Shown here: one piece after another, positions 3,852 through 38,710 of the stretch
How the letters are laid out: every line of letters starts with the position of its first letter
Numbering within the stretch: position 1 is the first letter of the stretch
Assembly (NCBI RefSeq): GCF_988243305.1
Contig: NZ_OZ547136.1
Strand: one strand, 5' to 3'
Length of the DNA stretch: 64,000 nt
Notes under the pieces: generated by a model
Databases searched by the model: none
Seen by the model: only the letters and a program-made list of their open reading frames with translations
Told to the model about the DNA's origin: nothing
Program-made: the position numbers and the translations under genes

Positions 3852-5123
3852 ATGCAGCACAACACACTACCGAAACACAATCAGAAATTGCCGTTTACAC
3901 GCTACGACTTCGGCTGGGTTTTATTATGCATAGGCATGGCGATTGGTGCCGGAACCGTGCTGATGCCAGTACAAATTGGCTTGAAGGGAATTTGGGTATT
4001 TATTACCGCAGCGATCATTGCTTATCCTGCCACCTGGGTAGTGCAGGACATTTATTTAAAAACCCTTTCTGAAAGCGATTCCTGTAATGACTACACCGAT
4101 ATTATCAGTCATTACCTGGGGAAGAACTGGGGAATTTTCCTCGGGGTTATCTACTTTTTGATGATTATCCACGGGATTTTTATCTACTCTCTCTCCGTGG
4201 TTTTCGACAGCGCCTCGTACCTGAAAACCTTCGGTTTAACCGATGCCGATCTTTCACAATCTCTACTTTATAAAGTCGCCATTTTCGCCGTACTGGTGGC
4301 AATTGCGTCTGGTGGTGAACGATTACTGTTTAAGATTTCCGGGCCAATGGTGGTGGTCAAAGTAGGGATTATCGTCGTGTTCGGTTTTGCGATGATCCCG
4401 CACTGGAATTTCGCCAATATAACCGCCTTCCCGCAAGCCTCCGTCTTTTTCCGCGATGTCCTGCTTACCATTCCCTTTTGCTTCTTTTCTGCGGTATTTA
4501 TTCAGGTACTTAACCCAATGAATATTGCCTATCGTAAACGGGAAGCGGATAAAGTACTGGCAACCCGGCTCGCGCTGCGTACCCACCGAATTAGTTATAT
4601 CACGCTCATTGCGGTGATCCTGTTTTTTGCCTTTTCGTTTACCTTCTCAATTAGCCACGAAGAAGCCGTTTCTGCCTTTGAACAAAATATCTCGGCACTG
4701 GCACTGGCCGCGCAGGTGATCCCTGGGCATATCATTCATATCACCTCTACGGTGCTGAATATCTTTGCCGTACTGACCGCATTCTTTGGCATTTATCTCG
4801 GTTTCCACGAGGCCATTAAAGGCATTATTCTCAATCTGTTAAGCCGAATTATTGATACCAAGAAAATTAACTCACGCATGCTGACTCTGGCGATCTGCGC
4901 TTTTATCGTCATTACGTTGACGATTTGGGTTTCGTTTCGTGTATCGGTGCTGGTGTTCTTTCAGTTGGGAAGCCCGTTATATGGCATTGTGTCGTGCCTC
5001 ATTCCGTTTTTCCTGATCTATAAAGTCGCACAACTGGAAAAACTTCGCGGGTTTAAAGCCTGGCTGATTCTGCTGTACGGCATTTTGTTATGCTTGTCGC
5101 CACTGTTGAAGCTGATTGAGTAA
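3852..5123 (+). CDS. yhjV: Inner-membrane amino-acid transporter family protein YhjV (423 aa)
   Basis: Multi-helix membrane protein starting [34 protein letters not shown]; start taken at the internal Met to match 423 aa. Confidence 0.88.
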
Positions 5124-13816: not shown

Positions 13817-15025
13817 TTAAAGGGAGCCATGCGCCTCACGCAACATTTTCTGCTCTGGCTGACGAATCGTCGTAGAGAGCGCCAGTGACAGAATCAGCAG
13901 GGCGAAAATCACGTAGAAGGTCACATAGAAGCCGCCAAACAGTGAGGCGATAATCGACCCACAAATGCTGCCGATACCGAAACCGAGATAAATCACACCG
14001 TAGTTTTTCGCCAGGTTATTGAGGCCGAAGAACTCACTGACCAGTGACGGGAACACCGTGATAGTGCCGCCAAAGTTAAACGCCACGCAGGCAATCGCTG
14101 CAAAGAACGTCACTGCATTCAATGGTGCAAACAGCAGGGCCGCCATACCCACCAGCGAAATCACCTGACCAATGGTGATAACACGGATTCGGGCGATTTT
14201 GTCAGACAGTATCCCCAGAACCAGACGACCTGAAAGGTTGGCGATGGAAATAACAGTGACTGCATTGGCTGCGGAAACCACATCAAGGTGTGCCAGACTT
14301 TGGGCGATATCTTTCGCTACCCCAATCACGTACAGGCCGCTCATGCAGGCAGTCAGGAACATTACCGCTAACATCCAGTACTGCGGTTTACGCATCGACT
14401 CTGCCAGCGTGTAATCTTTCTCCACGACACCATTGCTGGTTTTCACTTCCTGTTTTGGTGCGTCTTTCATTAACGTTGCGCCGAAAACAATCATCACCAG
14501 CGCAATCGCTCCCCAAATCACAAATGTTTTTTCCAGACCCACCGTTTCCAGCAGCTGCGTGTCGATAAATTTGAAACCCAGGCTACCCAGACCATAAGAA
14601 CCGATAGCGAACGCGGAGATCAGACCTTTACGCTCCGGAAACCACTTCACGCAGTTAGAGAGCGTCAGCAGGTAACCCGCGCCATCCGCCAGACCGACCA
14701 GCACACCGGCGCTTAACCACAGCATCATCAGGTTGTCAGAATGCGCTGTCAGGAAGAAGCCTAATCCCAGCAAAATGCCGGAAGCCATAGTGACGCGTTT
14801 AACGCCAAAACGTTCCTGTAATTTCCCCGCAACAGAAGATGAAATTGCCAGCCCCAGACTTAACAAGCCGAAAGAGAAAGCGACCTGGCTTACCGGCGCA
14901 TCCAGCTTGGCAGAAAGCGCGCCGTTAAACAGGCTCCAGGTATAAACCGACCCCAGCGCAAACTGGGTAATGATAGTACCGATGAGTGTCAACCAGCGGG
15001 TACGCTGATAATTTGAAGGTGTCAT
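13817..15025 (-). CDS. yhjX: MFS transporter YhjX (putative pyruvate/oxalate-formate antiporter family, 402 aa)
   Basis: 12-helix MFS protein starting MTPSNYQRTRWLTLIGTIITQF. Confidence 0.9.
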   Translation of the reverse strand: MTPSNYQRTRWLTLIGTIITQFALGSVYTWSLFNGALSAKLDAPVSQVAFSFGLLSLGLAISSSVAGKLQERFGVKRVTMASGILLGLGFFLTAHSDNLMMLWLSAGVLVGLADGAGYLLTLSNCVKWFPERKGLISAFAIGSYGLGSLGFKFIDTQLLETVGLEKTFVIWGAIALVMIVFGATLMKDAPKQEVKTSNGVVEKDYTLAESMRKPQYWMLAVMFLTACMSGLYVIGVAKDIAQSLAHLDVVSAANAVTVISIANLSGRLVLGILSDKIARIRVITIGQVISLVGMAALLFAPLNAVTFFAAIACVAFNFGGTITVFPSLVSEFFGLNNLAKNYGVIYLGFGIGSICGSIIASLFGGFYVTFYVIFALLILSLALSTTIRQPEQKMLREAHGSL

Positions 15026-15108
15026 GGCAGTATTCCTGCAGTAATAAAAAGGAAAAATCTCTGCTGACAACCATAACGAAGTGCACTTTATGCCTGGGGA
15101 AAAACGGC

Positions 15109-15139
15109 ATGAAATGCCATCAGAACGGAATGAAATGCA
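15109..15139 (-). promoter_or_regulatory. Direct-repeat response-regulator site in the yhjX promoter (YpdB/PyrR-type boxes)
   Basis: Two copies of GGCATTTCAT / TGCATTTCAT (read on minus strand) separated by exactly 11 bp, upstream of yhjX; matches the published YpdB motif as remembered. Confidence 0.6.
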
Positions 15140-15253
15140 TTAGTTCAGGAATGAATGACTCGACAATTATTCACTAAATTTATTATTTAGTAAGTTAGCA
15201 CCCACTATCGCCACAACTGTTGTTATCCAATGGTTTCAATTGTATCTATAACG

Positions 15254-15958
15254 TTAAAATCTGGCACTAACCCCCATCGTATACAGATAGTCGCTATTGT
15301 TAGTGGTATTTTCTGCCTGAGATAGCGCAGCATAGGCAGCAATATTTTGATTGAGCAACATATCAGCGCCTACGGTGACATCCAGCCAGTTGCCGTTCTG
15401 GTTTGTCGCCGTCATCCGGCTCAGGCCTGATTGCGCCTTCCAGATATTCTCGCCAAATTGCTGGTTATAGCTGATTTGCGCCCAGGGTCGGAGATCGCCA
15501 AGCCGGGAGTCAACACGCCAGCCTAAGGTACTCACGCTGGCATGCCATAACGGATCGGCCAGCGTGGTAGTACTGTCGCCAAACTCGTTATACATCGAGG
15601 TGGTTGTGCCATCGTAATGTAATGCCGCGACCGGGCCGGTTGTAACCTGCTCATATAAAGGAAAATTCCAGCCCATACTCATACTGCTGGTCACATCCAC
15701 AGGAGTTTCTTCCGCCAGATTGACTTCCAGTCCCAGCGCCCTTTGGCTACTTTGAATACGTTGCGACAAAATATCGTTGTAATCAGGTTGGTGATCACTA
15801 TCCCAGGTGTAACGCTCTGTGGAATGTCCGGGTTGCGTATCAACGATATATTCTTGTTGCCAGGCGTAAGCTGTGTTGAGAAAAAAGGCACTGATTACCA
15901 CACTCGCCAGCAGGCTTAGCTGCCAGCGACCACCGCTTTTTTTTATGATCATTAACAC
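15254..15958 (-). CDS. yhjY: Conserved protein YhjY (predicted outer-membrane beta-barrel/autotransporter-like, signal peptide)
   Basis: About 232-aa ORF with N-terminal signal peptide and C-terminal aromatic residue; start uncertain by 2 codons. Confidence 0.8.
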   Translation of the reverse strand: MLMIIKKSGGRWQLSLLASVVISAFFLNTAYAWQQEYIVDTQPGHSTERYTWDSDHQPDYNDILSQRIQSSQRALGLEVNLAEETPVDVTSSMSMGWNFPLYEQVTTGPVAALHYDGTTTSMYNEFGDSTTTLADPLWHASVSTLGWRVDSRLGDLRPWAQISYNQQFGENIWKAQSGLSRMTATNQNGNWLDVTVGADMLLNQNIAAYAALSQAENTTNNSDYLYTMGVSARF

Positions 15959-37885: not shown

Positions 37886-38710
37886 TTACATATGTGCCGC
37901 GATTAACCGTTGGTTATCCTGGTACATTGCGAACAGGTAGTTGTTATAACTCTTCCCTTTGGTCGAGTAGCCCTTCAGCTTGTGAATCATCGCTGTGGCA
38001 GTCACTTCCTGATCCGCTTTACGCAGCTGTGCACGCGATTTACGGAACGAAGAGTAAGCCGGGTGAGTATTCAGGTTAGTGACATAGGCGCTCACCGATT
38101 CTTTGACAGAACTAAACTGTGAGTACCCCTTCACTTTACCCGGCGCATTAGTACAACGTCCTTTCATGCATTTCATGCCGAACAGGTTGTTGTTGTTGCG
38201 CGCCAGCTTCGACGTTCCCCAACCGCTTTCTGCTGCAGCCATCGTCGCCACCATACTAGTGGGGATAATGTCTACGCGTTCAAGCAAGGTATTCCACGGG
38301 ATTTTGCGCGTATTACCAGACCACTTCACCTTGTAGCGTTTGGCGATGTCTTTCAGACGCGCACGCTCAGCAGGTGACCATTGGCCCTGATACTGTTTTG
38401 AAATGAGCCAGTTACGTTCCGCAGTAATGGCCGCATTTTGGCTGGTAATGTAAGGCATTACAGTCCGGAGAAACGCCTTTTTCCTTGGTGTTCCGGAAGG
38501 GTATTTTCGCAAATCAGGAAGTGAACTACTCTTTGCACTATTGCGAGAATACTCTTGTTTACTGCTTACCTGTTTATTACTAGCTTTAGTTAAGTGGGAC
38601 TTTTGACTCGCTGTTGTTGTGTGCGTCTTCGCTAACACCTCACTCGAAAACACCAGAGTGAGTAACATAAGAATCATCGCCCCATATCGTCGTATGGGAG
38701 TCAAAATCAT
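37886..38710 (-). CDS. bax: Bax protein (putative glucosaminidase-domain protein, 274 aa)
   Basis: 274-aa ORF with signal peptide, recognised by sequence and position. Confidence 0.85.
   Translation of the reverse strand: MILTPIRRYGAMILMLLTLVFSSEVLAKTHTTTASQKSHLTKASNKQVSSKQEYSRNSAKSSSLPDLRKYPSGTPRKKAFLRTVMPYITSQNAAITAERNWLISKQYQGQWSPAERARLKDIAKRYKVKWSGNTRKIPWNTLLERVDIIPTSMVATMAAAESGWGTSKLARNNNNLFGMKCMKGRCTNAPGKVKGYSQFSSVKESVSAYVTNLNTHPAYSSFRKSRAQLRKADQEVTATAMIHKLKGYSTKGKSYNNYLFAMYQDNQRLIAAHM

Follow-up and report, generated by a model that had tools for sequence, protein, structure and literature searches.

The DNA directly upstream of yhjX in the window (the whole stretch of 64,000 nucleotides that was analysed) very probably carries the YpdB/PyrR operator of this gene that has already been characterised in Escherichia coli K-12. 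We make this call because the match to a published binding fragment, the identity of the gene and the published binding data agree. A sequence-only reading of the window had judged the element to be well supported but known biology, and rightly so, as it is the same element as the one studied by Behr et al. 2016 (PMC4847170). Our additions are modest refinements: a 13-nt unit, a conserved third unit, a fixed T/G contrast at position 11 and a variable inverted box, termed D. As found, the element has little significance, because the promoter is a characterised one, and the modest value of the additions lies in refining the published model by comparison across species.

The repeats lie upstream of yhjX in a syntenic locus

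The ATG at position 15025 on the minus strand opens a reading frame that encodes a 402-amino acid MFS protein, which matches the Pfam family MFS_1 with an E-value of 3.5e-35. In the matching genomes RefSeq annotates this gene as yhjX, with eptB and yhjY on either side, the same arrangement as in K-12. The locus region was matched in 5422 of 5426 complete E. coli genomes. The features discussed in this study are as follows.

13817 to 15025, minus strand: yhjX coding sequence, the regulated gene (RefSeq annotation yhjX; Pfam MFS_1).
15070 to 15075, minus strand: putative -10 hexamer TATGGT of the YpdB-dependent yhjX promoter, assigned by conservation only.
15081 to 15094, plus strand: element D, an inverted box of degenerate sequence in the presumed -35/-10 spacer (GTGCACTTTATGCC; 9.4 bits).
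15100 to 15105, minus strand: conserved kTTTT tract (GTTTTT on the coding strand) that follows unit B directly and adjoins the expected -35 position.
15106 to 15118, minus strand: unit B, which is the published low-affinity YpdB site B and lies proximal to the promoter (coding strand GGCATTTCATGCC; published 10-nt motif at 15118-15109; equal to site B of the K-12 SPR fragment).
15119 to 15126, minus strand: 8-nt variable spacer from A to B, of low information and fixed length in 81 aligned sequences.
15127 to 15139, minus strand: unit A, the distal YpdB site A, published as high-affinity (coding strand TGCATTTCATTCC; published 10-nt motif at 15139-15130).
15140 to 15147, minus strand: 8-nt variable spacer from C to A, likewise of low information and fixed length in the 81 sequences.
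15148 to 15160, minus strand: unit C, the third unit, which keeps the 21-bp phase exactly (coding strand AGTCATTCATTCC, also given as GTCATTCATTCC).

On the coding (minus) strand the two boxes read GGCATTTCAT at 15118-15109 and TGCATTTCAT at 15139-15130, which corresponds to ATGAAATGCC at 15109-15118 and ATGAAATGCA at 15130-15139 on the plus strand; the plus strand runs across the operator as ...cggcATGAAATGCCatcagaacggaATGAAATGCAttagttcaggaatgaatgact... The gap between the boxes is exactly 11 bp and the period 21 bp. Both are oriented like yhjX, and the 10-nt motif of unit B ends 83 nt before the start codon. The exact two-box pattern occurs once in the 64 kb and in none of 100 dinucleotide-preserving shuffles, and the single 10-mer ATGAAATGCM is found three times compared to 0.6 expected. 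Sequence and shuffles thus bear out the two 10-bp boxes with an 11-bp gap that the sequence-only reading had reported upstream of yhjX, and the interval in which it had placed them, 15100-15160, spans the whole element.

Unit B is itself nearly palindromic (GGCAT-TTC-ATGCC). In E. coli DX6 (NZ_CP126345.1) site B is interrupted after GGCATTTC by an IS1 element, at the equivalent of approximately window position 15110. The insertion deletes the promoter-proximal part and the start of yhjX, which makes this strain a natural knockout of the regulated gene.

The boxes coincide with the published YpdB sites

The MG1655 annotation has renamed YpdA/YpdB as PyrS/PyrR. The same naming is used in PMC7660256, where yhjX is induced 678-fold by 3 mM pyruvate, in agreement with the pyruvate-inducible yhjX of the sequence-only reading. 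Activation has a threshold of approximately 600 uM pyruvate, and the motif is detectable in several other genera (PMC5552118). PyrR contains a receiver domain (Response_reg) and a LytTR domain; these domains, together with a 21-bp repeat architecture that fits them, uphold the assignment to the LytTR type. The ypdAB genes lie outside the 64-kb window, and their presence in this strain is assumed from their near-universality in E. coli, where ypdB is found in 5422 and the operator in 5421 of the 5426 complete genomes.

YpdB binds a direct repeat of GGCATTTCAT in the yhjX promoter (Behr et al. 2016, PMC4847170). The native part of the promoter fragment that was used in these binding studies, CGCGTCATTCATTCCTGAACTAAGGCATTTCATTCCGTTCTGATGGCATTTCATGCCG, is described as covering all DNase I-protected nucleotides, and it is from this description of the oligonucleotide that we took the protected region. 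Positions 15162-15105 of the window (coding strand) are identical to this K-12 fragment at 56 of 58 bases. The distal and the proximal box map to sites A and B, which were defined by mutation (PMC4847170), and site B is identical. The sequence-only reading had likened the boxes to the YpdB/PyrR binding site, and both of them coincide with the published sites. Thus gene identity, synteny and the match to the published fragment agree on a YpdB/PyrR site at yhjX. With K-12 sequences, the distal site A is bound at approximately 1.2 nM with slow on and off rates, and the proximal site B at approximately 21 nM with fast on and off rates (PMC4847170).

The operator is built of 13-nt units in a strict 21-bp register

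A protein-guided scan with one genome per species yielded 80 yhjX loci with 84-99% protein identity from more than 20 enterobacterial genera (Escherichia, Citrobacter, Enterobacter, Buttiauxella, Kluyvera, Lelliottia, Kosakonia, Cedecea, Yokenella, Atlantibacter, Klebsiella oxytoca and others). None of the 81 sequences has a gap in the alignment block corresponding to 15160-15097, and the 21-bp period is strictly kept. In these 81 promoters the conserved unit is 13 nt long, nGCATTTCAT[T/G]CC, and is separated by 8-nt variable spacers, so that the published 10-nt motif gains three more conserved bases. Mean information per position is 1.66 bits in unit C, 1.87 bits in unit A and 1.71 bits in unit B, compared to 0.57 bits in the spacers; averaged over all unit positions it is 1.75 bits, and the difference to the spacer positions is significant (Mann-Whitney p = 2e-8).

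The individual units have the forms nG(T/C)C(A/G)TTCAT(T)CC for C, (G/T)GCATTTCATTCC for A and nGCA(y)(y)TCATGCC for B. Position 11 is T in site A in 80 of 81 sequences and G in site B in all 81, and this T/G contrast is a fixed difference between the two sites. Unit C shares G2 and TTCATTCC (15155-15148) with unit A and is off consensus at positions 3-5, where it has TCA in place of CAT. Its TTCAT and C12 are invariant in all 81 sequences. Unit C is as constrained as site B, and hence it is no chance weak copy. The sequence-only reading had noted a third, weaker copy (gaatgaatga, at approximately 15149-15158). The copy does exist; in evolutionary terms the word "weaker" does not hold, as the copy is in phase and strongly conserved.

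With a position weight matrix (PWM) trained on non-Escherichia orthologues only, units A, B and C of the window score 21.8, 21.1 and 13.8 bits, respectively. Taken together at 21-bp spacing, the three units sum up to 56.8 bits, compared to -11.5 bits at the second-best position of the window. One perfect 13-nt box of the YpdB type, TGCATTTCATGCC, stands alone at 38167-38179 (plus strand, 21.0 bits) within a 274-amino acid open reading frame at 37886-38710 (minus strand), which by position is bax. It has no partner 21 bp away. Shuffled sequences yield on average 0.43 PWM matches above 14 bits. As this 13-mer lies inside a coding sequence and lacks a phased partner, it is probably due to chance.

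Conservation extends beyond the units. The four positions following unit B (15104-15101) are T in 80-81 of the 81 sequences. We infer that this tract may help to bend the DNA or be contacted by YpdB or RNA polymerase. A second conserved block is found at 15194-15209 (coding strand GATAGTGGGTGCTAAC), with patches continuing to approximately 15245, around 35-50 bp upstream of unit C. Most genera, from Escherichia to Kosakonia, have this block, the consensus of which is GATAG(Y)R-N3-(R)CT(A/C)AC, and it had no match among the motifs tried.

The window carries a common operator allele

Both changes that distinguish the operator of the window from that of K-12 affect position 1 of a unit (A1, G to T; C1, C to A), which is the least conserved position of the units. 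Of the 81 species, 52 have G and 29 have T at A1; at B1, 43 have T and 30 have G. The exact allele of the window is present in 1625-1626 complete E. coli genomes (approximately 30%, ST131 included), and the exact 44-bp core with the T allele in 1626 of 5395 matching E. coli genomes. YpdB binding was measured on the K-12 allele, with G at position 1 of site A (PMC4847170). The T allele of the window at site A is also that of UTI89, in which induction of the native yhjX transcript is seen in the wild type and is lost in a btsS ypdB double mutant (PMC9765748). Since the position is degenerate, the allele common and UTI89 with the same allele still induces, the T allele of site A, which is common in B2-type E. 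coli, is probably neutral.

Between window positions 5000 and 29000 every gene is syntenic with K-12 and UTI89, and the best identity over these 24 kb among the 5426 complete E. coli genomes is at most 99.1%. The E. coli lineage of the window is therefore not closely represented among these genomes; its local yhjX promoter allele is nonetheless common.

Promoter geometry and the inverted box D

The only -10-like hexamer that is conserved in all genera is TAnnnT, which is found in essentially all of the 81 sequences and always 29-30 nt after unit B. This would place the -10 hexamer, TATGGT, at 15075-15070 and the transcription start at approximately 15062-15065. With a start near 15063, unit B would extend from about -55 to -43, unit A from -76 to -64 and unit C from -97 to -85. 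No -35 consensus is recognisable in the yhjX promoter, and the lack of this hexamer, with unit B then presumably abutting the -35 region, fits an activator-dependent promoter. A literature search for an experimental transcription start of yhjX returned nothing usable. The single sigma-70-like site that a simple promoter scan detected lies far upstream (15267-15239) and is no better than in shuffles. Another -10 candidate, TAAAGT (15090-15085), for which box B would overlap the -35 region, was rejected, as its sequence in UTI89 is TAAAGC and the Enterobacter clade does not conserve it.

Element D, the inverted box, is found at the same offset in other species. It scores more than 10 bits in 21 of the 81 and at least 19 bits in 11 of them, and its score in Escherichia is 9.4 bits. 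A perfect box (GGCATGAAATGC on the coding strand) is found in Yokenella, Pseudescherichia, Kosakonia, Phytobacter and others, and among the 81 species D is absent from the Enterobacter clade. In genera with a perfect box, D could add self-limiting repression.

In the 5' leader, a palindrome GCAG-GAAUA-CUGC at 15031-15046 encloses the Shine-Dalgarno sequence AGGA of yhjX together with a GGA motif and is kept across genera. CsrA-dependent activation of YhjX is mentioned in PMC11508082. Folding of the leader is no better than that of shuffles (z = -0.41), and we therefore make no claim of RNA structure for the palindrome. A search of 14900-15400 against Rfam gave no match at E <= 1.

Two protomers or three on the yhjX operator

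According to the 'AB-BA' model, an activated YpdB monomer would first bind the distal site A (approximately 1.2 nM), and a second monomer would then bind the proximal site B cooperatively (approximately 21 nM, with fast on and off rates). In this model, the occupied site B would bring in RNA polymerase, and quick release from B and then from A would result in pulsed expression. The boxes are 21 bp, or two helical turns, apart and so lie on the same face of the DNA. Unit C would most likely hold a third protomer or stabilise binding at A. The operator may hold two protomers, C then being a flank that sets the shape of the DNA, or three.

That exactly two YpdB protomers sit on A and B, with C being flanking DNA that provides shape or bendability, or the site of another factor, comes close to an even chance of being correct. 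SPR interaction-map analysis resolves two binding events, and the authors ascribe the difference in affinity between A and B to flanking nucleotides (PMC4847170). Moreover, when site A is mutated all YpdB binding is lost, even though C and B are intact, and when site B is mutated a single interaction at 23 nM is left (PMC4847170). As an intact C does not sustain binding once A is mutated, it does not act as an independent site. Its departure from the consensus at positions 3-5 and its score of only 13.8 bits also fit two protomers. The core of C (G2, TTCAT and C12), however, keeps the 21-bp phase exactly in all 81 promoters, which fits a degenerate third copy and not a generic shape element. 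In addition, C is contained in the fragment that is described as DNase I-protected, and the fragment of the paralogous YehT/BtsR likewise has three phased copies (PMC4847170). C was left unmutated in all SPR oligonucleotides of that study (PMC4847170).

The reading that these last observations favour is that the yhjX operator is a three-unit array, in which C provides a third YpdB contact, either as the site of a protomer or as an anchor responsible for the tenfold higher affinity of A, and that triple 21-bp arrays may be shared by both enterobacterial pyruvate-sensing LytTR systems. We put it forward tentatively, as a serious possibility that falls short of an even chance. C may act as a third site that binds cooperatively, or as the flanking sequence that gives A its advantage over B, and either role would explain why A is bound more tightly despite identical 10-nt motifs in K-12. 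If true, such a role could account for the A/B affinity gap and revise the 'AB-BA' model of pulsed LytTR expression.

It is very improbable that the repeats serve another regulator, such as the paralogous BtsR/YehT or a global factor, and that the dependence on YpdB is indirect. Purified YpdB-D53E binds the fragment at nanomolar affinity, and mutations in the boxes abolish binding (PMC4847170). No copy of the BtsR motif ACCRCTYA lies in the yhjX intergenic region, and its six occurrences in the window, a number that matches chance, are all elsewhere; the cross-talk that has been reported is between kinase and regulator and still acts via YpdB. Finally, a functionless chance duplication in an AT-rich intergenic region is hardly credible: short repeats are frequent in general, and an unrelated perfect 13-mer occurs in the bax reading frame, but the two-box pattern is missing from all shuffles, units and spacing are kept over more than 20 genera while the spacers vary, and YpdB binding has been demonstrated (PMC4847170).

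Comparison with known LytTR operators

The K-12 yhjX operator is the same element at the same locus. It shares with the window 56 of 58 bases, site B, the 11-bp spacer, the orientation and the 83-nt distance to the start codon, and it differs in having G instead of T at position 1 of site A and C instead of A at position 1 of unit C.

Other LytTR operators (AgrA P2/P3 of S. aureus, ComE, PlnC/PlnD and VirR; PMC4847170) resemble that of yhjX in architecture. They consist of two direct repeats of 9-11 nt that are 11-13 nt apart, with a period of approximately 21 bp, and monomers bind to successive repeats, of which the proximal one adjoins the -35 region, as unit B presumably does. They have no consensus in common, however, and the yhjX operator adds a third in-phase unit and has a unit of 13 nt, compared to 9-10 nt.

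A parallel to the third unit is provided by btsT (yjiY) of E. coli, the target of the paralogous LytS/LytTR pyruvate-sensing system with the regulator BtsR/YehT, whose operator has a repeat period of approximately 21 bp like that of yhjX. The protected btsT fragment (PMC4847170, Table 1) contains three copies of the motif, GCCGCTCA, ACCGCTTA and ACCACTCA, at steps of 20 and 21 bp, and thus mirrors the arrangement at yhjX. The BtsR/YehT system differs from that of yhjX in its unrelated motif, ACCRCTYA, in its higher affinity for pyruvate and in its dependence on cAMP-CRP.
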